Counted from the first letter of the stretch, positions 3,882-16,479 are shown. The stretch is DNA of 24,568 nucleotides from Promethearchaeota archaeon (GCA_018238625.1 JABCSY010000058.1:1-24568); one strand, 5' to 3'. Translations and numbers: made by a program. The notes: generated by a model not told the origin, from the sequence alone.

Positions 3882-4301
3882 ATCAGTCTAAGACAATACA
3901 ATACGGAATTAGGATTGCTCATAGATAAGATTGTTAAAGTATATCTAGAGAAAGACAAATTCTTTGTTGGAAAATTAAAAGGTGTTTCGGAAGATTCGAA
4001 CTTGGTTTTAAATCACGTGAAAAACGAAAAAGGTAAAACATTCCCAAAAATGTTGATAAGAAGTAGTTACTATCATTTTGTAACGGTAGAAGAAGAGCCG
4101 TTCCCAATGCAAGCTTTGGCAGATAGAATTGCTACGATTTTTTCAAAAGGACATGTGAACTATATTGAAGATCAAAATATTATATCAATTTTGAATGGGA
4201 AAATTATAGTAGATGAGAACGGAGTGAGAGGAACTGGTCCTTCTGCTGAACGCGTAAAGAAGATATACGATCAATTTAGTATTGATTTAGAAAAGGACTA
4301 A
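3882..4301 (+). CDS. SmAP3-type Sm/Lsm RNA-binding protein (Sm domain plus Lsm_C domain)
   Basis: Sm1 motif VKVYLEKDKFFVGKLKGV...NLVL, Sm2-like MLIRSS, and a C-terminal VDENGVRGTGPSAERVKKIYDQF as in SmAP3. Start is uncertain: TTG 3915 (track) or ATC 3882 behind GAAGGTG. Confidence 0.85.
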   Translation: MSLRQYNTELGLLIDKIVKVYLEKDKFFVGKLKGVSEDSNLVLNHVKNEKGKTFPKMLIRSSYYHFVTVEEEPFPMQALADRIATIFSKGHVNYIEDQNIISILNGKIIVDENGVRGTGPSAERVKKIYDQFSIDLEKD

Positions 4302-4328: not shown

Positions 4329-4850
4329 TTAAGTAGATTCTTTTCCTTTAAACGCATTTAACAAGTTTTTTAGGTTTATGTCTTGAATGAGATTTTTCAA
4401 GATTGCTTTTCCTAAAGGAGTAATTTTTATGATATCAAGATCTTCTATTTTTCTTAAATAATCGTTTTCAATTAGGAATTCAACATCAGTTGCCCAGACT
4501 TCTTTGAAAATTTCTTTTAGGTCGCTAATCTTTATGTTTTCGTCTACCTCCTTGCCAAGAGCAAGTATCAACGCCAAAGTACCGTATTGAGAAGGCGTAA
4601 TGTTGTCGTCTTTACCCTCAGAGGTTAAAACATAGAACTTTTGATCTAAAAAATTAGATTTTATGAATTCAAAACCAATTTTCTTTAAATTTAAATAAAC
4701 TGAGCTTATGATTTGTTCAAAATCGAAATTTTTACTTAAATTCTGGAGGTCCTCTTCTCGAATCATTTTTTGAGGGCTCGTTAAAATAATTTTAGTAATG
4801 TTTTTTACCGCTTCTTCAAAATTTGTATTATCCATATTTTTTCTTATCAA
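4329..4850 (-). CDS. Tandem winged-helix protein, KITE-like (Nse1/Nse3-MAGE/ScpB type)
   Basis: WH-A: FEQIISSVYLNLKKIGFEFIK...KFYVLTS. WH-B: YGTLALILAL...VEFLIENDYLRK...IKITPLGKAIL. Directly downstream of the SMC-like gene (4-nt overlap if the TTG start is used; alternative ATG at 4835). Confidence 0.6.
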   Translation of the reverse strand: MIRKNMDNTNFEEAVKNITKIILTSPQKMIREEDLQNLSKNFDFEQIISSVYLNLKKIGFEFIKSNFLDQKFYVLTSEGKDDNITPSQYGTLALILALGKEVDENIKISDLKEIFKEVWATDVEFLIENDYLRKIEDLDIIKITPLGKAILKNLIQDINLKNLLNAFKGKEST

Positions 4851-6496
4851 CTCTCTTCAACTTTTAAAACTTTTAAATTCTCAATTTCTTTTTTTAATTC
4901 TAAATTTGACATAAGAAAGATTAGTTTAAAATTAGATAGATTATCATTTGTTTCGAATATTGGTAAAATCTTTCTAATAGTTCTGTAAATGGAACCACCT
5001 TTATTATAAATATTAGGGATGAATAAATTTGAAAACAATATATTTTCAGATTTTAAAAGGATTTTAATAGAGAGGAAAAAAACAACTATGAAATAAATTT
5101 TTTCGGGAGTTGTTAATCCTTCAAAATTGACTTTCTCTTTGTAATTTCGTATAAAATTAGTTTGGATAAGAAAAGCCATATTATCGTTGCTAATTACTAG
5201 CTGATAAAGAATTTCTAGATGAATTTCTTTTAAGAAGCTATTCAATACAATTTCAAGATCGTGAATAATAGTCTCAAATTTCTTAAAACTTTCAAAACTT
5301 TTTGCAACCTCTTTTTCATTGGTAGAAATATTGATTTTATCGTGACCAATTTTCAAAACATTATCAAATTCTCTCAATTTTTCAATTATTCGAGTTAAGT
5401 CGCTCAAATTATGAATGTTAAATGAATCTTCAGGGATGGAGATTTTATCTAAGTCTGAGATCGTTTTTTCAATCTCATCTTCAATTTCTACGGAGTTTCG
5501 TACTAATTTTAACACTAAACTTTCAGGTTCTACGTCTGGAACTGTTTTATTATCGTTTCTTTTTTTTTCGTAGTTAGATTTTACTTCCTTTATTCTTATT
5601 TCATCTTTTTTTATTGTTTCTAAGAGGTTCTCATAATCATTTTTGTATAACTCATAATGAGGAGTAAGGTTTTCTAGTTTTACTTTAGTTTCATTTGTGC
5701 TTGATTGAATTTGTTTAATTTCGTATTGAGCTTCTTTCGCTTTTTTTTGAAGAGCTCGTATCTTTTCGGCGTTAGTAAGATTTACTTTAATTCCTAATTT
5801 TGCAATTGAGTCGTTATTATCTTCATTTAAAGAACCCTCGATTTGTCGCGTAATTCTATTAATTTGACTGAAACATTCTTTTTTAGTTTCGTTTTGAAAT
5901 CGAATCTGCTGAGCGTGATTTCTTAATTCTTTTTTTATTTGATCAACCTGATTTTTTTGTTGAAAATAATCCTCTTCTAAATAATTCAATTCTTTCTTGT
6001 TTTTAATTATAGCCTCATTTAATTTTTTAATTAAGTCTATAATTGATGCTAGATCGCTTGATTTTTTGTAAAGTTTTGACAATTCTAATTCTTCAGATAA
6101 CTGATTCTTTTTTTCCGTTAGGAAGATATATCTGAAAATCTTCAATAATGTTTCAGTAAGCGAGTTAAAATCAGAAAAAGCTTCTAAATTATATTCCATG
6201 ATTTTGCTATAGTTAGATAAATAATCCAAGATATTTAGAGATTTATCTAGACTAGATAAATTAGCGTTTTGGTTTTGAAAAAGTTTAATAAATTTTTTAA
6301 CAGGGATTAGCTCTAAATTGTCAATAATTTCTAAGAAATCTTTATTGTGATATAGATTTAGAACGCCTTTTTTGAATTTACCGAGAATTAACGTAAATCT
6401 ATCTTCTACTAATATTTCTTTCGTTCCAACAGTAAGCTTAAAATTATTTAGACTAATATGTAAATTCACTCCTGATTCTTTTTTAACCAGATTCAA
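4847..6496 (-). CDS. Short SMC/Rad50-like coiled-coil protein with degenerate ABC-ATPase motifs
   Basis: N-terminal ISLNNFK...FTLILGKFKKG resembles the SMC N-head. A long central coiled coil follows. C-terminal FEGLTTPEKIYFIVVFFLSI...NILFSNLF...FKLIFLMSN occupies the signature, Walker B and H-loop positions. Confidence 0.6.
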   Translation of the reverse strand: MNLVKKESGVNLHISLNNFKLTVGTKEILVEDRFTLILGKFKKGVLNLYHNKDFLEIIDNLELIPVKKFIKLFQNQNANLSSLDKSLNILDYLSNYSKIMEYNLEAFSDFNSLTETLLKIFRYIFLTEKKNQLSEELELSKLYKKSSDLASIIDLIKKLNEAIIKNKKELNYLEEDYFQQKNQVDQIKKELRNHAQQIRFQNETKKECFSQINRITRQIEGSLNEDNNDSIAKLGIKVNLTNAEKIRALQKKAKEAQYEIKQIQSSTNETKVKLENLTPHYELYKNDYENLLETIKKDEIRIKEVKSNYEKKRNDNKTVPDVEPESLVLKLVRNSVEIEDEIEKTISDLDKISIPEDSFNIHNLSDLTRIIEKLREFDNVLKIGHDKINISTNEKEVAKSFESFKKFETIIHDLEIVLNSFLKEIHLEILYQLVISNDNMAFLIQTNFIRNYKEKVNFEGLTTPEKIYFIVVFFLSIKILLKSENILFSNLFIPNIYNKGGSIYRTIRKILPIFETNDNLSNFKLIFLMSNLELKKEIENLKVLKVEES

Positions 6497-7520
6497 AATG
6501 ATTTTTGAATTTTTTGTATTCTTTTTCTTTTTTTTTCTTTCTTTCTCTAATTAATTCGATAGGGTCTCTATCATCATCTTTTTGATTTAAATAGTTTTCT
6601 TTAAAATTTTTATCAAATTGCAATTTAAACTTTTCAATTTTCTCTGAAACTTCGTCTGAAAGTTCCATTTTCTTTTGATTTCCATCTACGATAACATCAG
6701 TTAATTTTTCACGCTTTTCTTTTCGCATTCTTCTTTCAAATTCTTTAGGTGAGAATTTCAAATAGTTTTTATAGGTTTCTGTTTGTTCTTCTTGATTTTT
6801 TTTTAATTCTTCGATTTCACTTTTTTCTTTTCTTTTATTTACAAATTCTTTTCTATCTAATAATTCTTGTTTAGTTAGCTTATTCTCAACAGTTTGTAAG
6901 AATTCTTCGTAAGTTAACTCAGGATTTAAATAAAATTGCTTTTCAAATTCCTTAATAAAAGAAGAGTCTATACCGTCAGGAATTCGACTTAATTCGTCTT
7001 TTAATCTTTTATCTATTAACTTATTATTGTATTTCCTTAATTGTTCGACAGATGTTAAAAAGAGAGAGTTTCGGTTTAGAGCATCTATTAATTCTAGCCA
7101 TTGATTTATTCCAATGGAAGAAATATATGATGTTTGACTAATAATTTTACTAATTTTTCTATTTTCAATTAAATCCAAACCAATAATTTTGGTATTAATT
7201 TCATTTAAACTAATTAGTTTTAGATGATCTTTAAAGTCATTTTTGTATTTATTAAGAAGTTTGTTTTGTAAGTCTAGAAATCTATTTATGTTATTGTTTG
7301 AGATGTTTTCTAAATTTTTATAGATAGTACTTAGAACTTTGGTTAGTTCATTTAATTGATTACTAAATGATTCATCGTCGAAATATTGGGAAGTTAATCG
7401 TTTTTCTGCTTCTAATTTTTCAGCGATATTAGTTATTTGATTAACTTTTCCTTGAAGATTTTCTATAGGAGATGTAAATTCTCTAATTTTTTCGAGGTTA
7501 AATAATTGATTTTCCATCAT
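6483..7520 (-). CDS. Hypothetical charged, helical/coiled-coil protein
   Basis: 345-aa ORF with a K/E-rich C-terminal half. Overlaps the start of the SMC-like gene by 14 nt. No family recognised. Confidence 0.75.
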   Translation of the reverse strand: MMENQLFNLEKIREFTSPIENLQGKVNQITNIAEKLEAEKRLTSQYFDDESFSNQLNELTKVLSTIYKNLENISNNNINRFLDLQNKLLNKYKNDFKDHLKLISLNEINTKIIGLDLIENRKISKIISQTSYISSIGINQWLELIDALNRNSLFLTSVEQLRKYNNKLIDKRLKDELSRIPDGIDSSFIKEFEKQFYLNPELTYEEFLQTVENKLTKQELLDRKEFVNKRKEKSEIEELKKNQEEQTETYKNYLKFSPKEFERRMRKEKREKLTDVIVDGNQKKMELSDEVSEKIEKFKLQFDKNFKENYLNQKDDDRDPIELIRERKKKKEKEYKKFKNHFESG

Positions 7521-7567
7521 TTTTAGCTAAAAATTATATTTTGAAATTAAAATCTTCTAATGTGTTA

Positions 7568-8686
7568 TTATATCTCTGGTGGACTAAATAATCTTTTTTT
7601 ATTATTTTCAGTTCTTTTCGATCCCGTATATCCTTTTCTAGGATTGCTTAAAATGTCTTGCCTCTCAACGTGAATTGCGGTACCTCCAACTAATTTTAAT
7701 GAATTATAAAAATGTTCATAAGTTAAACGTTCTGAATCAATAGCCTTCAATAAAGATACTTTCGTACCCCTTTCGATATCTGAGCCAGAATATCCAATAG
7801 TTAATTCAAGTAAGCCCATGGCTTTGCTCTTTTTGTTGAGTTCATCCCATAATATATTGTCGCTAAACTCAGTGATGGTATGACCTAATTTGCTTTCTAA
7901 GCTTATTGTAATTGCCTTAAGCCTTTCGTACTCATCATTTAAACTAACATAAATTGATTTGTCAACGCCAATTTTTGCTTTTTCTACCTTACTAAGAAAA
8001 GATTCAATGATCTGCTTTCTTATATGAAAATTGGGGAATTCAAAGCTAAAATGAAAAGTAAATCGTCTCCAAATAGCTGAATCTAATTGGTTTTGATGAT
8101 TTGTTGCTCCAAATATCGCTAAAGGTACGCCTTGATAATTTATTCTGTCGATTGCTTGTAAAAATGATATAACCGCACGTTTAATTTCACCAACTTCATG
8201 AATGTTTGATCTTTCAGAGCCAATAGAATCAATTTCATCGAAAAATAATATAAAAGCACCTCTTTCTTTCGCGATTTCAGCTGCTAAATCCACAACATTT
8301 CTAATTTGTTTAATTGTATCTCCTAATAATGGTGATACCAATCTATCAGTTTCTACTACACAAATTGGTATTTCATAATGCTTCGCAAATCCTCTCGTAA
8401 GAGAAGTCTTCCCCGTGCCTGGGGGGCCATATAAAAGAACTGTTAAACTGGGGTTAAGTTTTGCTCCTTTTAACTGTTCCGTAAATTCTTTATATTTTTT
8501 TAAAGCTTTGAAAAAATCATGTAATATTTCTTTTTTAACCTCATTTCCTAAAATATCGTCAATATTATCTTGAATGTCGAAAGGAAAATACACTGCTCCA
8601 TATTTACCTATTCTATTCTTAATTACATCATCGGTAAATGTTTTTATTTCTTCCACTTCTTCATTTGAATTGCTAATTTTTCTCAT
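7568..8686 (-). CDS. Single-domain classic-clade AAA+ ATPase
   Basis: Walker A GPPGTGKT, Walker B ILFFDEID, and SRH with arginine fingers GATNHQNQLDSAIWRRF. Lid motif GYSGSDIE. Confidence 0.93.
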   Translation of the reverse strand: MRKISNSNEEVEEIKTFTDDVIKNRIGKYGAVYFPFDIQDNIDDILGNEVKKEILHDFFKALKKYKEFTEQLKGAKLNPSLTVLLYGPPGTGKTSLTRGFAKHYEIPICVVETDRLVSPLLGDTIKQIRNVVDLAAEIAKERGAFILFFDEIDSIGSERSNIHEVGEIKRAVISFLQAIDRINYQGVPLAIFGATNHQNQLDSAIWRRFTFHFSFEFPNFHIRKQIIESFLSKVEKAKIGVDKSIYVSLNDEYERLKAITISLESKLGHTITEFSDNILWDELNKKSKAMGLLELTIGYSGSDIERGTKVSLLKAIDSERLTYEHFYNSLKLVGGTAIHVERQDILSNPRKGYTGSKRTENNKKRLFSPPEI

Positions 8687-8702
8687 CTCATTTTATTGTA
8701 AT

Positions 8703-10010
8703 TTAATTATTTTTTCTTTCTTTATCAAATTTTTCACAATAATCTGCAATTTCGTTAATAAATTCTTTAAGATTATCAATTTGAGCACCAATAAAGTTAA
8801 AAATTTCTTTTCTATATTGAGGGGAATCTCTTATCTTCAGTTTATCTAAACCTAAATAATTTGGAAAACATACGAGCTTCATTAAATAAGGTAGTACTTT
8901 TTCATTTGTTTGTAAATCTTTAAATATTGGATAAAAAATATTTTGATCGGATAATTTCCATTTTAAAATTCCCATGTAAATTAGAAAGGCAAAATTCATT
9001 GAAATCCAATTTATAAATTCTTTTGATAAAAATCCTCTTCTTTGTGAAGCTAACGCTAAATAATACAAATTTAATGTTTCATTGCTCAACTGTGGTAATA
9101 ATCTTATTTTTCCATCGGATTGCTTATTTTCACGTATGAAATTGTTTTCTAACATTATATCGACTAAATCTTCTTTAGGTGCGAGGAAAATTTCGTCAAT
9201 AACACGGAGTCCAATACGTTCGGCAATTTGATTTATAGCTTCTTCCTCGGCATTAGCGATTGAATCAATGTATGGGTTAAAAACTTCAGTTTTTAAAACC
9301 ATAGGAAGTTCTTGATTTCCTCTTTCAGGGAATTCACCAAAATTTGGATCTAAATTGTAAAGAGAAGTTATATTGTTGATTAACTTAGAAACTTTCGGAG
9401 ACATACCAGGAATTTCAAAAAAGTCTGATCTTTCTAATTTATCCCTGTAATACGTGTGAGGTTGAAGCATATGTCGTTGGCACTCATAAAAATTCGAAGA
9501 GTATTTTAGTAATTTATTATAAATAATTATTTTATTTCTTCCTCGTGGAAACAATCTTTTTTCTATGTACTTCGTTAAAACATATAAAAATGTTTTTTCT
9601 AAACTCGATTCGTCTGGATTGGTAATATGTCGCAAAACATTCAATGCCCCAATGGATTCGTATAAAAATTCAATAATATAATCTTTTATATCAATGATTG
9701 GAATGGTTTCCCGATACTTCAATATAAAATCTTTTATTATATCATAAACATTTGATCTATACATCGTATAAAATTCTGATAACGCTCTTACTTTTCGGAT
9801 ATTTCTTTTTTCTTCTTCTTGGCGAATTTTATCCAGGATTTCAATATCTAGTAGTAAATCAGCGTCTAATTCGATAATTTTTCTCCTCGTTTCTCTAAGA
9901 ATTGGGCGCATATGACTTATAAAAGTTAAATATCTAGGTAGAATATCAGTCCATTTCTCCCTTTTTCTACCTGATTTTACCATTCTAGTAGATTTTTTTT
10001 TATAACTCAT
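8703..10010 (-). CDS. Hypothetical helical protein with basic N-terminus and possible winged-helix segment
   Basis: 435-aa ORF in the operon. LVDIMLENNFIRENKQSDGKIRLLP resembles a helix plus wing. Family not recognised. Confidence 0.75.
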   Translation of the reverse strand: MSYKKKSTRMVKSGRKREKWTDILPRYLTFISHMRPILRETRRKIIELDADLLLDIEILDKIRQEEEKRNIRKVRALSEFYTMYRSNVYDIIKDFILKYRETIPIIDIKDYIIEFLYESIGALNVLRHITNPDESSLEKTFLYVLTKYIEKRLFPRGRNKIIIYNKLLKYSSNFYECQRHMLQPHTYYRDKLERSDFFEIPGMSPKVSKLINNITSLYNLDPNFGEFPERGNQELPMVLKTEVFNPYIDSIANAEEEAINQIAERIGLRVIDEIFLAPKEDLVDIMLENNFIRENKQSDGKIRLLPQLSNETLNLYYLALASQRRGFLSKEFINWISMNFAFLIYMGILKWKLSDQNIFYPIFKDLQTNEKVLPYLMKLVCFPNYLGLDKLKIRDSPQYRKEIFNFIGAQIDNLKEFINEIADYCEKFDKERKNN

Positions 10011-10037
10011 AGTTCTCGCTCTTTTTTTTAAACTATA

Positions 10038-11186
10038 TTAACTTTCATCGTACCCTACTACTATTTCTGTGAATATGTTAGCGATCTCCACGAAGATTGG
10101 TATTTCTACACGCACCAACTCTCCGAGAATCCACTTGTTTACATCTTTCAACAAGAAACGTACTTGATTTATTATTTTCTTATTAATTTCAGAGTCTATT
10201 ATTTTGGTTAACCATAAACCTCCCCCTAACCTATAAGCAATAATTTTTATTAATGGTTCAAAAAGAGGTTCTAAGACTTGTCTCATCATCCACGATTTTG
10301 GAATGACACTCATATTATTTTCGTCAAAATTAGGATCGTTGAGAATGGGGTTTGTCTCATCAACAGATAGTTTTGGCATAAAGCTTAATAATAGAATTAG
10401 AGCAAATATAGCAGTGATGCCGTTTATTGTATAAGAGCCCCCAATCTTCTCAATATCGTCTCTATTTATTGATACATTGGCTAAAAACATACAAATAAAA
10501 ACATTTCTGTCGAAGGCTTCAGAGACATAAGTATAACCTAATTCCTCATTAATTATTAAATATTTTTCTTTGAGAATTTCAATAATATCATCTGGAAATG
10601 TGTAAAAAGTGTAAACCTTCTCTTCACTTTTTCTAACATCCTTTTTTACAATCAACTCTTTTGAGACCAAACCAAACATTTTAACAAGTTCTTCCAGTTG
10701 GTTTTTTATGTAATGACGAGGCTTATTCGGATCGCCAAACATGGCATAAAATTGATGATCAATAATATGAAAATCATTTCTTTTACTAAAGGCTTCTACC
10801 ATCCTATTTATTATGGGTCCTTGTGTTCCTGAAGCGATTGCTTTCGCTTTTGATGTTACAAATCCATTTAATAACTCATTTATAATAAAATCTTGTTCAT
10901 GAGTTCTAGACTTTAATATTTTATCAAAAGCTTCAGAAAAAATTTTTGTATTTGGAAAAAATGCGTTTTGAATTTTATCATTTATTGATTTCAAAAAAAT
11001 ATCACCGTTATTCTTTGGAAAGTGGAGTTTCATATTATTCAGTCTTTGTACTAGAGCTTCTTTTGCTCCTGGGATGTTTTCCGCATCTCTTTTCTCCAAT
11101 TCATCGATTGCCTTTTCTAACCCTTTATCAAATTGCTGAAGTAATTCTTTCCAAGTAGAATCTTGAATTTCTGCCATTTTTTTCAC
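10038..11186 (-). CDS. Hypothetical protein with probable central winged-helix domain
   Basis: 382-aa ORF. RHYIKNQLEELVKMFGLVSKE...VYTFYTFPDDIIEIL fits a recognition helix plus wing hairpin. Confidence 0.75.
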   Translation of the reverse strand: MKKMAEIQDSTWKELLQQFDKGLEKAIDELEKRDAENIPGAKEALVQRLNNMKLHFPKNNGDIFLKSINDKIQNAFFPNTKIFSEAFDKILKSRTHEQDFIINELLNGFVTSKAKAIASGTQGPIINRMVEAFSKRNDFHIIDHQFYAMFGDPNKPRHYIKNQLEELVKMFGLVSKELIVKKDVRKSEEKVYTFYTFPDDIIEILKEKYLIINEELGYTYVSEAFDRNVFICMFLANVSINRDDIEKIGGSYTINGITAIFALILLLSFMPKLSVDETNPILNDPNFDENNMSVIPKSWMMRQVLEPLFEPLIKIIAYRLGGGLWLTKIIDSEINKKIINQVRFLLKDVNKWILGELVRVEIPIFVEIANIFTEIVVGYDES

Positions 11187-11210
11187 TATAGATTATAATT
11201 CTTTTATTAT

Positions 11211-12164
11211 TTACCAATTTAATTCTGCTACTATTTTCTTTAAGGCATCAACTAATGGATTTATAAGCTTTTTATCGTAAAGGTTCGGAGAACTTACTCC
11301 TCTTTGGGCTTTCCAACCCATTTGTGTTCCTTCCCCCATTTCTCTTTTTCCAAATTTTAAAATGTTGCTTAGATCTCGCATCCACCAATAAAATCTTAAC
11401 CATTTTTTGTTTGGGTTATCTTTAGAATGAATAACTGCCAAAGCTTTCCATTCCCCCATTAACCACTTTACTGTAATGCCGCTTTCAGGCAAATAATAAT
11501 TTATGGGAAAATTAGCTTGAAAATTTAAATCGAGATCTTTAGAAATTATATTAAAGATCGGCTGGTTATACCCTTCTAGTACGACGATTTCACCACAAAA
11601 CTGGCACTCATAATGAGATTTCATTTTTTTCATTTTTTTTTGACATTTTGGGCATGTCCGGTTTTCAATAATTCTATATTTGATAATGTCTAAGTTTTTT
11701 TCTTTTTCTAAGGTATCTTTTGTTTTGGGTTCTTGTTTTCCATACTTCCCTTTCCAAGTCCATATTTCGTCGAAAGAATCATTAATTTTTTCTAATGCGA
11801 TAATAACATTTTTCAGAACGTCCTTATCATAAATTTTAAACATCCCCGCGTGTTGATAACTTTTCCACCAAGAAAGTCTTACGTATTTCTCAGTTTTTAA
11901 GTAAGCACTATGGCAAATCAGGACCGCGAATAACCGTGTATCGCTCTTATTTATTACAATCCCTTTTTCTGCTACTTCATAAGTTTTATTCAATGATACA
12001 TTTTTATGAAACCACTCTCCATCTATAAAAGTTCCTATAGTGGATTCTTCTTCTTTTTTTTCTACCTCTATACTCTTTTCCTTAATGATTTTCTTACATT
12101 GTGGGCATTCAAAAATTCCTGGAATTAAGGGTTTCATTTCAACATTACATGTAGAACATTTCAT
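11211..12164 (-). CDS. Double zinc-ribbon protein with internal duplication
   Basis: CSTC..CPQC and CPKC..CQFC ribbons. Each is followed by a similar beta-rich unit (KYVRLSWW / KWLRFYWW; IYDKDVLKNVIIALEKI / LYDKKLINPLVDALKKI). Confidence 0.8.
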   Translation of the reverse strand: MKCSTCNVEMKPLIPGIFECPQCKKIIKEKSIEVEKKEEESTIGTFIDGEWFHKNVSLNKTYEVAEKGIVINKSDTRLFAVLICHSAYLKTEKYVRLSWWKSYQHAGMFKIYDKDVLKNVIIALEKINDSFDEIWTWKGKYGKQEPKTKDTLEKEKNLDIIKYRIIENRTCPKCQKKMKKMKSHYECQFCGEIVVLEGYNQPIFNIISKDLDLNFQANFPINYYLPESGITVKWLMGEWKALAVIHSKDNPNKKWLRFYWWMRDLSNILKFGKREMGEGTQMGWKAQRGVSSPNLYDKKLINPLVDALKKIVAELNW

Positions 12165-12166
12165 AT

Positions 12167-13267
12167 TTAGTCATCATTAATGGTTATAATATACCTTTCA
12201 TAATCTAAATTTAATAATTTTAATTCTTTCTTTGTAAATCTTGTAATCTTACTATTAATTTTTACTAAATCTTCTCTAAGATCAATTAAAGCATTCTGGA
12301 TATTATTCACAATGTCATCTTCGTTAAAAGACACTTTCTCGATGAATTCAAGATAATTATACTTTTTACCTTTCCCTGAATAATATAATTTCATTTCTAA
12401 TAATTTGTTTTCAATTTGTTTCATCTGAAATCTAAGGTTTAACAAAGATAATAAATTAGAATTCCAACTTTTAAAGATTAGATTTTCTTTATCAATTTCA
12501 TCGTAATTAAATTTATCTGGAAGCTCTACTTTTTCATCTTTAAGAAATTGAATAATATCTTTATTTTCTTCAATAGCTTTATTTGTTTTTTTTAAAACGA
12601 TTTTATTTTTCAATTTGGGCTCAAAGATTTCAATAAATTCATCAATTTTATCCTTTATCTCCAAAAATCTTTGGTAAAACCCTTCGATTGTAATCTCAAT
12701 TTTAATAGCTTGAAAAATATTTCCATATTGATCCAAAATATAATATAGATCATCTGATATTCTAAAATCATAACCCCCTATTTCAAAAACAAATGGGTGG
12801 ATAATGTTACCTATTTCGCACCTAACTCCTTTTAATTTATTTAAAGCCAGATTAAAATTCCTCCTGGTTAGAAACTTAAATTTTTTGTTTATTAGTAAAA
12901 ATAATGTATGATCTGGCACCGAAATTTTATTATTTTCTATTGTTACTGTCTCTTCTCCTAACCGGATTATGAAATCACCGTCTTTTTGTTCAAATTCTCT
13001 CATACTTCTTATATTTTTAATTAAACCTAAATCAATAACAATTTCAATAAATTCTTTATTCCAAAAGGTTAAAATATTATCTTTATATATCTCATCTAAT
13101 ACTAGAACCTTCTCATATGATTCTATGAGTTCTTGATTACTTAAATCCTTGAATAAATCATTTCTGATGACATATAAAAATAAAATGATATATCTCATAT
13201 CAATGTCGTCAAGAATCGTCTCTATCAAGTTCTTATCGTAATCCATCGACAAACTCGTATGTTCCAT
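12167..13267 (-). CDS. Hypothetical protein: winged-helix-like middle and helical-bundle C-terminus; first gene of the operon
   Basis: 366-aa ORF. LTRRNFNLALNKLKG...FVFEIGGYDFRISDD is wHTH-like and is followed by long amphipathic helices. Confidence 0.75.
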   Translation of the reverse strand: MEHTSLSMDYDKNLIETILDDIDMRYIILFLYVIRNDLFKDLSNQELIESYEKVLVLDEIYKDNILTFWNKEFIEIVIDLGLIKNIRSMREFEQKDGDFIIRLGEETVTIENNKISVPDHTLFLLINKKFKFLTRRNFNLALNKLKGVRCEIGNIIHPFVFEIGGYDFRISDDLYYILDQYGNIFQAIKIEITIEGFYQRFLEIKDKIDEFIEIFEPKLKNKIVLKKTNKAIEENKDIIQFLKDEKVELPDKFNYDEIDKENLIFKSWNSNLLSLLNLRFQMKQIENKLLEMKLYYSGKGKKYNYLEFIEKVSFNEDDIVNNIQNALIDLREDLVKINSKITRFTKKELKLLNLDYERYIITINDD

Positions 13268-13472: not shown

Positions 13473-14054
13473 ATGGGAAGAAGAAAAAGAAAGCAACAAT
13501 CTTATAAAAGAGTCAAAACAGTCCCAAAAATTTTTACTTGCCCAAATTGTGGGGAAAAATCAATAAAAGTAGAAAATTTACGAAAAAGTGTTATAGCTAC
13601 AGTGAAATGTGGTCATTGCGGTTTAACAAAGGAAGTTCTGGTTAATTCTATTTCAGAACCTGTTGATGCTTTTGGTGATTTTATCGATATTCATTATGCT
13701 GATCAAGAACTTCAGAGATTAGAAAAAAGCATTGGAAAATTAATAAAAAAAAACGAATGGGGAGAACTTGCACTATCCTACTCAATTTTATCGGATATTT
13801 GTAAACTTAAAGCTGTTCAAGCTTTAGAAGACGAAGATAAAGTAGATCTTGATGAAGTAAATAAATGGAAATTTAAAGCTGAAGAATATAAAAGGCGTGA
13901 AAGAGATGCTCTACTTCAATTAGACACGCTTGAATTGGAAAAAGGAATTAGAACAGACGAAGAATCTCTATTTTCAGAGCATGATGAGAGCGATATGAAA
14001 AAAGAAAAAAAAATCGAAGATATCTTTGACGATCCTGGTTTTCTTGAATTTTAA
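13473..14054 (+). CDS. elf1: Transcription elongation factor Elf1 with long C-terminal extension
   Basis: The basic N-terminus MGRRKRK, FTCPNCG...CGHCG Zn ribbon and EPVDAFGDFID are Elf1 hallmarks. About 115 extra residues follow. Confidence 0.9.
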   Translation: MGRRKRKQQSYKRVKTVPKIFTCPNCGEKSIKVENLRKSVIATVKCGHCGLTKEVLVNSISEPVDAFGDFIDIHYADQELQRLEKSIGKLIKKNEWGELALSYSILSDICKLKAVQALEDEDKVDLDEVNKWKFKAEEYKRRERDALLQLDTLELEKGIRTDEESLFSEHDESDMKKEKKIEDIFDDPGFLEF

Positions 14055-14125: not shown

Positions 14126-15856
14126 TCAATTATTTAGGATATGGGATTTAACTTTAGGCGGAATGTGTTTCCAAATAGGAAGATTTAAGATTAAATTGAA
14201 AAAGCGAGTTCGATTCAATTTTTTTTTTAAAATAAAATAACTCCAGTTGTAAAATGCTAATTTATTAAAGAGATTCATTAAGTTCACACCAAATAGGTTA
14301 TATTTTGAAGTTAAAAAACTTGCTAAATAAGCACCTAACCGCTTATTTCGTGGAACTGATTCAGGATATACTGATTCTGATAGAGGTCTATTGAAAATTT
14401 CATAAATTGAAAAAATAGGTATAAGATTATCTAAATGTTCGTTTACAATTCTATTATAATTTGAGTTCTCTAAGGATAAAGCAGAAAGCTCATTTAATTT
14501 TTTTAAGGCAAGATTAAAGTGTTGTTCCTTAAAGTAAAGCCACATAATTCCCATCTTATCTCTTAATTTCACCAACTCAGCTATAACTTCCTTTTCTTTA
14601 AAAGAAAATGAGTTTTTTATCTCGAAATGTGTTATATAAAGCAAAAATATTGAATAAATAGAAGTTTTATCAAATTCAGTTAAATTATCACTTTCTTTGA
14701 CCTTTTGGAGATCAATTTTATTATTTGATACGTTATGGATAGTATGAGTATATAATGGTGTTATCCATAACATTTTCAAAATTTTTTCCATAAGTCGAAT
14801 ATGGAGCGTATATTCTTCAATTTTAGAAAATTTTTTAGATCGTTTCAAACTGGGAACAGAAAAGGTTTTAGATTGATCGATTCTAAATTTAAATGTATCG
14901 ATTCTTTTTAACTTATTAATCAATTCTTTTCTTTGTTTTTTATTTATTAAAATCTTTTCAATTAGCAACTTCTTTATTGATATTAACTTCTTTATGTAGA
15001 TATAGAAATCTACATTGTACTTTTTTACAATATAATCGTTTGTTATTAATGGAATGTTGATTGTTTGTTTTTTGGTTTTAGTCTCAATGCTCATTGCATG
15101 GTCCCCTATAGAATATGAAAACGTAATTGTTTCAAGAGCTTCTTCTAAACTGGAATATACACCTAATTTTTTTGGATCATGGGTGAAATAACCGTGCAAG
15201 AGAGTATCGATTCCTTTAAACTTATTATTTTCATATTTTGAAATAATAACAGATTCAAATTCACCAGGATGATGCCTTTTAATGCCGTAACGTTTACCCA
15301 CAAGAAGAATTGCTTGATTAGCTCTATGATATACAGTATGAGACCACCTAAACAATGGTTCTAATATTTTTCCAATTGTTAATAAATACCCATAAAATTC
15401 TGGTCCAAAATAGATAGGGAATCCAAAACCTCGAGATGTTGAAAATGTAAATTGGAAAACATTCCTTGTTTTCTCACCTTTTAGAAATCCGGGAAATTTA
15501 TAGTGTAAAGCTAATCTGGGATAAAGTGCTCCCAAACCCAAATTCATCCACATTTCAAATAGAATTATGCTGTCAGGAAATTTGAATGAATCTTTTTTGA
15601 TTAAGAAATCGTTTCTCGATGTGTTTAACGCAGTTGGAATGGCATAGAGCCATTCTTTATTGCTTTCTAAAGACTTCAACCGGTTTTTAAACTTTTTTAC
15701 CAATAATCGTTTATTCTGGTTTTGTACTGCAGCTTTTTTATAATAATAATTATTCAGAACTCTAAAGAGCGAAGTAATTTCTAGTATTTGTCTTTGAAGA
15801 TCATGAGCTACTTTTACTTTAATAACGCCTGAATTCTTATTTGAGGATTGCTGCAC
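14126..15856 (-). CDS. Hypothetical protein (576 aa, basic)
   Basis: Long ORF with GTG start and no recognised motif. N-terminal alpha/beta region, central coiled coil, helical C-terminus. Confidence 0.75.
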   Translation of the reverse strand: MQQSSNKNSGVIKVKVAHDLQRQILEITSLFRVLNNYYYKKAAVQNQNKRLLVKKFKNRLKSLESNKEWLYAIPTALNTSRNDFLIKKDSFKFPDSIILFEMWMNLGLGALYPRLALHYKFPGFLKGEKTRNVFQFTFSTSRGFGFPIYFGPEFYGYLLTIGKILEPLFRWSHTVYHRANQAILLVGKRYGIKRHHPGEFESVIISKYENNKFKGIDTLLHGYFTHDPKKLGVYSSLEEALETITFSYSIGDHAMSIETKTKKQTINIPLITNDYIVKKYNVDFYIYIKKLISIKKLLIEKILINKKQRKELINKLKRIDTFKFRIDQSKTFSVPSLKRSKKFSKIEEYTLHIRLMEKILKMLWITPLYTHTIHNVSNNKIDLQKVKESDNLTEFDKTSIYSIFLLYITHFEIKNSFSFKEKEVIAELVKLRDKMGIMWLYFKEQHFNLALKKLNELSALSLENSNYNRIVNEHLDNLIPIFSIYEIFNRPLSESVYPESVPRNKRLGAYLASFLTSKYNLFGVNLMNLFNKLAFYNWSYFILKKKLNRTRFFNLILNLPIWKHIPPKVKSHILNN

Positions 15857-16029
15857 TGAATTAACCGAATTAAAAACAATTAATTTCTTAAATTGATATA
15901 TATGTTTATCAATTTTAATCTTAATTGATTTTACCTATTCATATATTGAATTATTAAAAAGTGAAAATGAGATGTTTTTTATTCCTTATTGCCAAGTAAG
16001 TTCAATGAATTTAAAATTAAAATTGATTT

Positions 16030-16479
16030 TCATTGGGTGTTTCTTTTAGCGAACAAGGATTTTAACTCACCCATAATAGCACCTCTTAGACTTACAGGGC
16101 TGGCTGGACGGGCGCCTCCGGGACCTCCAGGTGGTGGCGGTGGACTTCCGGGTGGACCTCCAGGTGGACCTCCAGGTGGACCTCCAGGTGGCCCTGCCAT
16201 AGGTGGTGGGGCACTACTTGGGGCTGTGGGCGCTGCAATGACTGGGGCGGCCCCAACTCCTCTCGTTCTAAGTGCCGAAACATCATTATTTATGGAATTG
16301 ATTCGCGATTCTAATGTTGAAATTCTTTGACCAACAGCCGCTAAAGATTGATCTACTAAATCTGGTATCCTTAGAATCATTATCATCATTTTTTCAACAA
16401 CATCGCCAAATGTATTTAACTTTTCTTCAAGGGGGGCTTTTCTTGTTTCTTGCATGAAATTTGCGAAATCTTCGGCCAT
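16030..16479 (-). CDS. Coiled-coil plus proline-rich protein with C-terminal WH2/VASP-like amphipathic helix
   Basis: Heptads VGQRISTLESRINSINNDVSALR, then PPPMAGPPGGPPGGPPGGPPGSPPPPPGGPGG, then SLRGAIMGELKSLFAKRNTQ. ATG is preceded by purine-rich GAGAGAG. Confidence 0.8.
   Translation of the reverse strand: MAEDFANFMQETRKAPLEEKLNTFGDVVEKMMIMILRIPDLVDQSLAAVGQRISTLESRINSINNDVSALRTRGVGAAPVIAAPTAPSSAPPPMAGPPGGPPGGPPGGPPGSPPPPPGGPGGARPASPVSLRGAIMGELKSLFAKRNTQ
16139..16198. repeat. Coding 12-bp tandem repeat (GGTGGACCTCCA)
   Basis: Three perfect copies at 16151-16186 with one degenerate copy on each side. Encodes the GPPG/GGPP repeat of the 149-aa protein. Confidence 0.9.

Follow-up and report, generated by a model that had tools for sequence, protein, structure and literature searches.

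The window analysed here, a 24,568-nt stretch of DNA from a Promethearchaeota archaeon, contains eight ORFs (g1 to g8) that all lie on its minus strand and span positions 4329–13267. ORF calling reproduced exactly the layout given in the initial annotation, with eight co-oriented genes separated by gaps of 2, 24, 27, 16 and 47 nt from g1 through g6 and joined by overlaps of 14 nt (g6/g7) and 4 nt (g7/g8). The overlaps and the 47-nt gap suggest a single transcript. Comparison with three close orthologous loci revealed purifying selection on every gene (dN/dS 0.04–0.29); judged from these ratios and from synteny, the eight ORFs are real genes. GC content runs from 0.24 to 0.33 within the cluster and from 0.25 to 0.37 in its flanks, with no shift between them, and the neighbouring genes are of the housekeeping type (Lsm, Elf1, pelota, RimI, CutA). 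Searches of the whole window for tRNAs and Rfam families returned no match, and no integrase or transposase family was found among 21 window proteins scanned with NCBIfam or 13 scanned with Pfam. Family scans, GC content and synteny hence agree with the earlier view of a resident locus lacking mobility genes and compositional shifts.

Cluster proteins were scanned against Pfam, NCBIfam, PHROG and PADLOC, and, as initially proposed, the AAA+ ATPase was the only product with a clear family. Among the eight, g5 (7568–8686; 372 aa) alone exceeded a Pfam cut-off (PF00004, 89.2 bits against a cut-off of 21.2; E = 3.9e-25). Walker A (GPPGTGKT), Walker B (DE150-151), TN195-196 and RR207-208 are invariant in 19/19 sequences; the last two we take to be sensor-1 and the arginine fingers of the family. 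With its catalytic motifs complete, g5 is by its sequence an intact classic-clade AAA+ ATPase. Its IetA-like core (residues 47–244) matches the PADLOC model of IetA (1.1e-55), and the protein also matches NCBIfam IteA (4.3e-49) as well as CdvC, PAN, Cdc48 and FtsH (1e-18 to 1e-23). The N- and C-terminal parts of g5 are unmatched. IetAS pairs the IetA AAA+ with the IetS protease. Membership of IetAS was rejected: the IteA score of 167.6 bits stays below the cut-off of 510, and neither IetS nor another protease was found among the eight proteins with Pfam and PADLOC.

Downstream, g7 (4847–6496; 549 aa) encodes a shortened SMC-type protein that appears ATPase-dead and hinge-less. AF2 models were made for g7 and g3, and in that of g7 (pLDDT 83) a pair of long helices lies between strands at the N-terminus and an alpha/beta domain at the C-terminus. 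Its top Foldseek matches were Rad50 (2e-9), JetC (1e-6), Smc5/6 (3e-6), an Smc head (4e-6) and LmuB (2e-5). In VIA, the model matched the heads of Rad50 (Z 11.2, rmsd 4.0 Å, 197 residues aligned) and Smc5/6 (Z 11.0, rmsd 4.6 Å, 229 aligned), at Z scores that generic coiled coils in the same list reach as well. Profile comparison by hhalign matched g7 to the SMC of a second SMC operon of the same archaeal order (97.2%, E = 4.3e-11, 343 columns, C-terminal head included), although the alignment spans g7 residues 149–509 only and leaves the N-terminal half of the head unaligned. The match to canonical SMC (84.6%, E = 6.7e-6) was confined to the coiled coil, and that to PADLOC JetC was weak (E = 0.0038) and likewise fell in the coiled-coil region. 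Taken together, model and hhalign place in g7 the split head joined by an antiparallel coiled coil that is typical of the SMC superfamily.

The ATPase motifs are another matter. Neither a Walker A P-loop (G....GK[ST]) nor a Walker B DE occurs in any of 19 g7 orthologs; a GKFKKGV stretch seen by eye after the third strand of the window protein is not conserved across the alignment. Opposite the second-operon SMC, hhalign places LTTPEK at the LSGGQ signature and, at Walker B, ILFSNLF opposite CMFDEAGMF, with S-N where D-E stands. In the model, a 22-residue loop (220–241) joins the two long helices and a globular hinge is absent; the ortholog alignment shows no conserved Cys pair of the Rad50 zinc-hook type. 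Judging from sequence and model, g7 is a real SMC relative without ATPase motifs, and the initial description of it as SMC-like is borne out by fold, profile alignment and the missing motifs alike.

The small last gene, g8 (4329–4850; 173 aa), had been called KITE-like, and indeed hhalign aligned its product with the second-operon kite (86%, E = 5.1e-6, 120 columns), which relates g8 by sequence to a recognised kite family. Comparison with ScpB gave 0.7% (E = 0.077), and a Pfam search at E ≤ 1 yielded no ScpB, MukE, MAGE or Nse1 match; within the second-operon kite family, one member (from genome G032) lies over the ScpB Pfam cut-off, at 28.4 bits. By these profiles, g8 is related to the Asgard second-operon kite and not detectably to ScpB. 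Its dN/dS (0.04–0.07) is the lowest of the cluster. We regard as shown the homology of g5, g7 and g8, the modelled fold of g7, and which ATPase motifs g5 keeps and g7 lacks.

At a position that could suit a kleisin lies g6 (6483–7520; 345 aa). Its product is helical, evolves fast, ends in a long tail rich in Lys and Glu, and fell into no family in the Pfam, NCBIfam, PHROG and PADLOC scans. A single residue, R266, is invariant in its ortholog alignment. An identity as kleisin (ScpA/Nse4/MukF) found no support in the hhalign score against the second-operon kleisin (E = 0.11) or in Pfam, which gave no match, and comparison with the 313-aa Nse4_C-like protein of the variant operons described below gave E = 0.37. 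Together with g7, g6 has the highest dN/dS of the cluster (0.18–0.29; 0.18–0.25 for g6 itself), and same-genus identity of the two proteins drops to 34–35%, where g3 and g4 stay at or above 77%.

The remaining genes have no counterpart in the second operon. The first, g1 (12167–13267; 366 aa), could be placed in no family with any of the four databases (Pfam, NCBIfam, PHROG, PADLOC), its profile found nothing among PDB sequences, and hhalign revealed no likeness to g3, g4, g6, g8 or the second-operon kleisin and kite; its syntenic orthologs share 26–93% identity (dN/dS 0.15–0.20). Both g1 and g6 remain orphans. In g2 (11211–12164; 317 aa), an internal duplication yields two CxxC...CxxC zinc ribbons, each followed by a beta-rich domain with RLSWW or RFYWW. 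C171, C174, C187 and C190 are invariant in the alignment and C3, C6, C20 and C23 nearly so, as would be expected from the duplicated Zn-ribbon protein that had been proposed. Zn-ribbon matches in Pfam were weak and under cut-off, and none to PurA appeared at E ≤ 1.

The most conserved subunit is g3 (10038–11186; 382 aa; dN/dS 0.09–0.12). In its model (pLDDT 74, pTM 0.77), a winged-helix-like domain at residues ~105–235 interrupts a bundle of helices. Foldseek returned nothing at E ≤ 0.001 for this model and only weak winged-helix matches, e.g. to TFIIE-alpha and MarR, and the best Z in a wide VIA search was 5.0. The g3 profile matched 37 representative clusters among 1.84 billion. For g4 (8703–10010; 435 aa), 568 homologs were found; among the 120 listed, all were unnamed or "hypothetical protein" and without a Pfam domain, and the g4 profile had no match in the PDB. 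Alignment of g3 with g4 extends over 204 collinear columns (hhalign probability 30%, E = 5.5e-4), and a 386-aa protein from another Asgard family matches both profiles (1e-10 and 1e-8). The two are probably distant paralogs that share this architecture of helix bundle and winged-helix insert, an overall fold without a known match. Both sequences contain hydrophobic helices, and none of g1 to g4 belongs to a known DNA-binding family. Winged-helix segments had initially been assigned to three genes: the g3 model bears one out, and g8 qualifies through its kite homology only.

Gene order proved constant, with Lsm on one side and Elf1 on the other, in all retrieved loci uncut by a contig end. Within the genus, all eight genes are syntenic in 17/17 uncut loci, with three further loci cut; 9 of 11 loci from other genera of the family keep the eight-gene order, as do five loci of the sister family, judged by position and including two single-contig genomes. 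Across two families of one Lokiarchaeia order, the g3 profile matched 118/134 and 13/14 genomes and g4 was present in 115/134 and 11/14; elsewhere, g3 matched 2/251 genomes of the phylum, both weakly, and g4 none of 12 in the class's other families. Such presence (~88–93%) is consistent with MAG incompleteness. Between 16 and 19 of the 134 genomes gave no match in the g4 and g3 searches. Two of the most complete genomes among them have a contig end running through the adjacent Elf1 gene, indicating that the locus is simply unassembled there. Two loci carry insertions: in G057 a 464-aa ORF separates g2 from g3, and in G067 g4 and g3 lie ~8.7 kb apart. The fixed order across the two families, the opposite of scattered genes, supports the proposal of one conserved unit. 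Conservation, synteny and purifying selection are firm, and the operon is vertically inherited, resident and Lokiarchaeia-specific.

Rare relatives combine g1–g5 with an SMC-like ATPase whose Walker A is intact. In G032 and G050, an SMC-like protein of 1057 or 1071 aa replaces g7, accompanied by a protein with a weak Nse4_C match and a final gene of g8 size; in G085, the SMC-like protein has 644 aa. These variant proteins match LmuB (3e-17; 5e-7), mad3 and JetC. The type of SMC module differs even within one genus (G028 vs. G032; G038 vs. G050). An SMC-type gene follows g5 in all uncut g1–g5 loci seen. The dead-SMC cluster is an extra system, since the genome from which the window comes also encodes canonical SMC and ScpB as well as the second SMC operon.

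This variation bears on whether the operon could serve immunity or conflict in the manner of Lamassu, Wadjet or IetAS, with an SMC-like protein sensing foreign DNA and an IetA-like AAA+ acting with effectors among g1–g4. The best g5 matches, to IetA and anti-phage IteA, point that way, as do the LmuB, mad3 and JetC matches of the variant proteins, the swapping of SMC-type modules within one genus and the fast evolution of g6 and g7. The distant g3/g4-like protein of the other Asgard family has an E2/E1 fusion and a JAB protein next to it, which are found together in conflict systems. Structures of LmuB, JetC and Rad50 match the g7 model, but the cluster has no nuclease partner of the LmuA, JetD or Mre11 type and the dead-SMC operon, passed on vertically, occurs widely and at a constant site. 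Further evidence against an immune role comes from the single Lsm–Elf1 position maintained in most genomes of two families, the absence of any nuclease, protease, TIR, SIR2 or other effector family, and of IetS, from the eight proteins, the IteA score far under its cut-off, the lack of mobile genes or a GC shift, and the low dN/dS throughout. We therefore consider an immune function unlikely.

Somewhat less probable still is that two units merely travel together, g1–g5 being an AAA+ core for a non-SMC substrate and g6–g8 a degenerate SMC-kite remnant with little or no function. Replacement of the downstream module behind a retained g1–g5 (G032, G050, G085), the insertions in G057 and G067 and the high dN/dS of g6 and g7 would fit such an arrangement. 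However, purifying selection persists on g6–g8 and is strongest on g8, no uncut g1–g5 locus seen lacks an SMC-type gene after g5, and the overlaps and short gap speak for one transcript.

Literature searches turned up no described system matching the operon, consistent with its initial classification as undescribed. Its closest relative appears to be the second SMC operon. "SMC5/6-related" SMC-kleisin-kite operons are described from TACK and Asgard archaea (Yoshinaga & Inagaki 2021, PMC8665677; van Hooff et al., preprint 10.1101/2024.01.07.573240), and the gene make-up of the second operon, rather than a tree, suggests that it is of this type. Its SMC and kite align with g7 and g8, and both operons place an AAA-type gene ahead of the SMC-type one and close with a small kite gene. 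In contrast, its SMC measures ~1125–1190 aa, while g7 has half that length and is devoid of hinge, Walker A, Walker B and signature; its AAA lacks a P-loop and any Pfam AAA match, whereas g5 is intact; and g6 is not recognisable as a kleisin. The P-loop-less AAA of the second operon resembles g5 no more than it resembles a Cdc48-like protein, which gives no support to a specific AAA–SMC co-ancestry. The SMC-kite ancestry of g7 and g8, together with the two zinc ribbons of g2, the winged-helix insert in the g3 model and the absence of ESCRT, MIT or membrane families in Pfam, makes it very improbable that the operon encodes a non-DNA machine, with a Vps4/Cdc48-like AAA+ remodelling a g6/g7 coiled-coil scaffold for a task in the cytoskeleton, at membranes or in protein quality, despite the classic-clade matches of g5 (CdvC, PAN, Cdc48, FtsH), the predicted inability of g7 to hydrolyse ATP, and hydrophobic helices and no known DNA-binding family in g3 and g4.

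To a DNA-handling machine we give about an even chance. Counting against it are the defence ATPase IetA as best family match of g5, the within-genus differences in SMC module, which are more typical of conflict systems, and the fact that the cluster can be interrupted (G057, G067). In such a machine, the last genes would stem from a chromosome-ring module of SMC and kite whose nearest kin is the Asgard second SMC operon. Retaining the split head and antiparallel coiled coil, g7 would have lost its hinge, about half of its arm and all ATP motifs and could therefore serve only as a passive clamp or scaffold, probably partnered by g8, its kite-like neighbour, and by g6, to which it is translationally coupled. 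Energy would come from g5 alone, which may load, open or recycle the g7 clamp, e.g. through a pull on the long charged g6 tail, and nucleic acids might be recognised by the double zinc ribbon of g2, the winged-helix-bearing g3 and g4, and g1. We infer that all products act in one complex, with DNA as its substrate, the clamp as the target of the AAA+ and the AAA+ in place of the SMC ATPase. The Lokiarchaeia operon would then represent an SMC-kite-derived system in which a dead SMC clamp and an AAA+ motor form an undescribed machine for handling DNA, with what may be a housekeeping role.

The eight genes g1 to g8, numbered in the direction of transcription, are co-directional open reading frames (ORFs) on the minus strand at 4329–13267, separated by intergenic gaps of 2, 24, 27, 16 and 47 nt and by overlaps of 14 nt (g6/g7) and 4 nt (g7/g8). 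The ORF listing of the window thus reproduced, figure for figure, the eight-gene layout of the initial annotation. As reading frames overlap, coupled translation of g6, g7 and g8 is suggested. GC content varies between 0.24 and 0.33 through the cluster and is similar in the flanks, and neither a tRNA nor an Rfam match was found in the window. The flanking genes are ordinary ones: Lsm (3915–4301) and Elf1 (13473–14054), both on the plus strand, and farther out pelota, RimI, CutA and radical-SAM enzymes. Beyond Elf1, a 576-aa ORF (14126–15856, minus strand) matches no Pfam, NCBIfam or PHROG family; it keeps this position throughout the window's family (49–92% identity), and was not found there in the sister family. 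Over 15500–17000, GC content rises to 0.35–0.37 vs. about 0.27 around it, with only short overlapping ORFs (113 aa, plus strand; 149 aa, minus strand), no tRNA and no Rfam match. Sequencing run X20, probably of DNA, provided only contigs of a 90–95% similar strain.

For g7, an AlphaFold2 model built from 19 orthologs (pLDDT 83) starts with three strands at the N-terminus and a long helix (residues 83–219); beyond a tip of 22 residues, helices run back to an alpha/beta domain at the C-terminus. Foldseek ranked Rad50 (2e-9), JetC (1e-6), Smc5/6 (3e-6), an archaeal Smc head (4e-6), LmuB and MukB at the top, and VIA-align superimposed both head halves on the Rad50 head (Z 11.2, 197 residues, 4.0 Å) and the Smc5/6 head (Z 11.0, 229 residues, 4.6 Å), Z values that are not decisive on their own because unrelated coiled coils score equally. 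Decisive for kinship is the profile–profile match to the SMC protein of another SMC–kleisin–kite operon of the window's order (hereafter, the second operon; alignment of 18 sequences): hhalign joined residues 149–509 of g7 with 719–1075 of that SMC over 343 columns (97.2%, E 4.3e-11), as compared to 84.6% and E 6.7e-6, over the coiled coil only, for canonical SMC (alignment of 14). Single SMC sequences, whether from the same genome or from the variant operons described below, gave no hhalign match to g7, and the g7 profile retrieved only coiled-coil matches among PDB sequences. In the alignment with the second-operon SMC, LTTPEK occupies the place of the LSGGQ signature, and ILFSNLF that of CMFDEAGMF at the Walker B/D-loop. 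The P-loop and the Walker B Asp-Glu pair are both missing from all 19 orthologs, and only two columns of the whole g7 alignment are invariant. The hinge is absent and the arms are about half as long. The proposed SMC resemblance of g7 therefore stood up in both model and profile comparisons: g7 keeps the SMC architecture and, having no P-loop or Walker B, is predicted to be ATPase-dead, neither binding nor hydrolysing ATP by the usual mechanism.

The KITE likeness claimed for g8 was likewise recovered, by way of the last gene of the second operon (kite2), which g8 matches over 120 columns (86%, E 5.1e-6). Compared directly with ScpB, g8 reached 0.7% and E 0.077; for scale, the kite2 family itself, one member of which lies above the ScpB Pfam cut-off, attains only 4% and E 0.0098. 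Against PDB sequences, the g8 profile gave only matches above E 0.1. From these profiles, g8 is a predicted kite-like protein.

Among the remaining proteins, g5 carries an intact, classic AAA+ core, with Walker A, Walker B, a TN pair (which we take to be sensor 1) and two arginines invariant in 19/19 sequences. In agreement with the suggestion that only the AAA+ ATPase has a clear family, g5 alone of the eight reached a curated cut-off (Pfam AAA, 89 bits vs. 21.2). Its best family matches are IetA (1e-55) and IteA (4e-49), the IteA score of 167.6 bits standing against an equivalog cut-off of 510, and an IetS-type partner was not found. Internal alignment of g2 bore out its description as a duplicated Zn-ribbon protein, with a CxxC…CxxC ribbon in each half and, after it, a domain that bears an RLSWW or RFYWW motif; its profile found only weak ribbons among PDB sequences. 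The g3 model (pLDDT 74, pTM 0.77) is a bundle of helices into which a winged-helix-like domain is inserted, and neither structure search (Foldseek, VIA) found a significant overall match for it. Probably g3 and g4 are distant paralogs: they align over 204 collinear columns (hhalign 30%, E 5.5e-4), and both profiles are matched by a single protein from another Asgard family. This 386-aa protein (g3 1e-10, g4 1e-8) adjoins a 149-aa JAB protein and a 608-aa E2/E1 fusion (UQ_con + ThiF) on a 5.4-kb contig (L063, G240:C831, 1022–5041), presumably a pairing of the ubiquitin-like or Cap2/Cap3-like type. The profiles of g1, g3 and g4 retrieved nothing from PDB sequences; g1 and g6 matched no Pfam, NCBIfam, PHROG or PADLOC family, nor, by hhalign, any of the other profiles compared (kleisin2, the second-operon kleisin, included for g6); and every ESM Atlas cluster found with g4 and g2 was either unnamed or that of the protein itself, with no model. 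An ESCRT-like reading was rejected, there being no Snf7, EAP30, Vps25 or MIT match. Judged by these searches, the cluster adds five protein families without known relatives.

The synteny comparison across Asgard genomes proposed with the initial annotation revealed a single gene order between Lsm and Elf1: 17 of 20 same-genus loci have all eight genes in order, the other three are cut by contig ends, and the 17/17 uncut loci thus agree. In other genera of the window's family (134 genomes in all), 9/11 loci hold all eight genes; in one of these (G057, L060), a 464-aa ORF is inserted between g2 and g3 (7218–8612). In G067 (contig C4, ~46100 to 54900), g4 and g3 are about 8.7 kb apart, and the intervening DNA includes ORFs of 440 and 1006 aa. 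Five loci of the sister family (14 genomes of the same order), two of them in genomes assembled as one contig (4.32 and 6.04 Mb), contain g1–g5 and g8 by sequence, while ORFs of 230–271 and 535–555 aa in the places of g6 and g7 are divergent orthologs according to alignments. Within the class, g4 was found in 127/161 genomes (115/134 and 11/14 in the two families, 0/12 in five others), and within the phylum the g3 profile matched 134/400 genomes (118/134 and 13/14, plus two weak matches, 9e-6 and 5e-3, in the other 251). As a single query, g7 was detected in 23/24 other genomes of the genus and, outside it, as one weak match in 16 genomes. Two of the most complete matchless genomes (100% and 99% complete) have the neighboring Elf1 cut by a contig end, so the cluster is unassembled rather than lost there. 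Synteny and distribution therefore make the cluster a resident of a single Lokiarchaeia order, inherited vertically there.

In a search of 1.84 billion representative proteins, the g3 profile hit only 37 clusters, the named distant full-length matches being proteins of Helarchaeota or Promethearchaeota metagenome-assembled genomes (MAGs). These distant relatives contain no Pfam family, and single-protein searches of genome and metagenome contigs found no context for them. The best 120 of 568 g4 homologs are unnamed or 'hypothetical protein', those named coming from MAGs with various Asgard labels, mostly Promethearchaeota. Against three close orthologous loci, dN/dS was 0.15–0.20 for g1, 0.10–0.13 for g2, 0.09–0.12 for g3, 0.07–0.12 for g4, 0.09–0.15 for g5, 0.18–0.25 for g6, 0.24–0.29 for g7 and 0.04–0.07 for g8. 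Several g5 and g7 orthologs have an open frame for the full protein and no ATG, GTG or TTG near the aligned N-terminus, and one g5 ortholog (L023, 5709–6830) has a stop two codons ahead of the conserved start region, suggesting that the start codon is unusual or the assembly in error.

Some operons pair the core with an SMC-like ATPase that is intact. Divergent g1, g3, g4 and g5 occupy the corresponding neighborhood in the single-contig genome G032 (L062, contig C1, 824–12137) and in G050 (L064, contig C66, 804–10928), where g5 is followed by an SMC-like protein of 1057 and 1071 aa, respectively, with an intact Walker A (Pfam AAA_21 1.5e-11, PADLOC LmuB 3e-17, JetC 1e-11), and then by a protein of 322–325 aa. 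In G032, where the locus continues, come a 313-aa protein with a weak Nse4_C match (E 1.3e-3, below cut-off) and a last, 176-aa gene collinear with g8 at a non-significant E of 0.038. The G032 neighborhood is the same (GHMP kinase, Lsm, methylase-like gene), inverted. In one of the 11 other-genus loci (G085, L053, contig C7, 12691–14625), g1–g5 are kept, and g6–g8 give way to one SMC-like ORF of 644 aa whose Walker A is intact (PADLOC LmuB 5e-7); the next gene encodes a PAPS-reductase-domain protein. In G048, additional genes are present and g7 is 678 aa long. Taken with the common form, the G032, G050 and G085 variants mean that an SMC-type partner accompanies the g1–g5 core in every case, dead as an ATPase in most lineages and intact in a small number.

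The cluster is an additional system, since the window's genome has canonical SMC and ScpB genes, one Rad50-like gene and a complete second operon besides. Its identification with canonical condensin was rejected, as canonical SMC and ScpB lie elsewhere in this genome; ScpB occurs in 30/31 genomes of the order, and in G038, where places were compared, its matches lie far from the cluster. The second operon of the window's genome (L122, G000:C101, 984–6961) begins with a 429-aa AAA+-collinear gene that has neither a P-loop nor a Pfam AAA match, a dead AAA-like gene, followed by a 1125-aa SMC, a 216-aa gene and a 186-aa kite. Its kite, searched alone, was found in 40/41 genomes of the order, and BLAST placed the four genes together in 15/17 fetched loci (17/17 if the kleisin is taken by position). 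That this dead AAA and g5 are specific sisters was rejected, since the dead-AAA profile matches a Cdc48-like ORF (91.8%, 7.4e-7) as well as or better than g5 (83%, 8.6e-6). TACK and Asgard archaea are described as having two SMC complexes, one condensin/cohesin-like and one SMC5/6-related, the latter with its own kleisin and an Nse1/3-like kite (PMC8665677; 10.1101/2024.01.07.573240); the accessible portions of these two sources make no mention of an ATPase-dead short SMC or an AAA+ partner. A full-text literature search found no publication on the cluster.

The cluster is thus of a predicted SMC–kite kind, with five orphan subunits and a putative function. In our preferred model, to which we give an even chance, g7 and g8, perhaps with g6, would form a passive SMC-type clamp or rod on DNA; a g5 ring, as the sole ATPase, would remodel, load or release it, for which the Lys/Glu-rich tail of g6 could plausibly serve as the handle; and g2, g3/g4 and g1 may recognise nucleic acid or chromatin. 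The DNA-handling machine originally proposed is partly supported, by synteny, by the SMC and kite kinship of g7 and g8 and by the intact AAA+ core of g5. Complex prediction of g7 with residues 1–270 of g6 plus g8 as partner scored 0.45, 0.45 and 0.58, compared to 0.00 and 0.00 for controls with the partner replaced and 0.30 for a control with g7 replaced, which kept the prediction short of its mark, so that it weighs neither way on binding.

The low dN/dS, the fixed locus, its near-universal presence and the lack of any effector family in the eight proteins all count against a defense or conflict system, which we regard as unlikely despite the IetA-like core of g5, the LmuB/JetC-like variant SMC proteins, the swapping of the SMC-type module within genera and the adjacency of the distant g3/g4 relative to a JAB protein and an E2/E1 fusion. 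Less probable still are two units merely travelling together, and we attach little credence to a scaffold-remodelling machine acting on something other than DNA.

A passive clamp worked by g5 could also be read more boldly, and here we are doubtful: as a third, Lokiarchaeia-specific chromosome machine, in which the motor role would have shifted from the SMC head to a separate AAA+ protein. A dead SMC–kite clamp would then be loaded, moved or opened by the AAA+ ring together with the new DNA-recognition subunits g1–g4, and rare relatives with both ATPases intact would represent evolutionary intermediates. Lokiarchaeia are among the closest known relatives of eukaryotes, and as two single-contig genomes of the order carry the cluster, experiments are possible wherever such an organism is cultured. 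SMC complexes are generally considered to require an ABC ATPase cycle of their own. The SMC-type protein of this cluster is predicted to lack such a cycle and is nonetheless conserved and under purifying selection, and its gene always stands beside those of an intact AAA+ ATPase and of four orphan proteins that are likewise conserved. The complex would be either a passive clamp on DNA that a different motor drives, or one put to some non-motor use.
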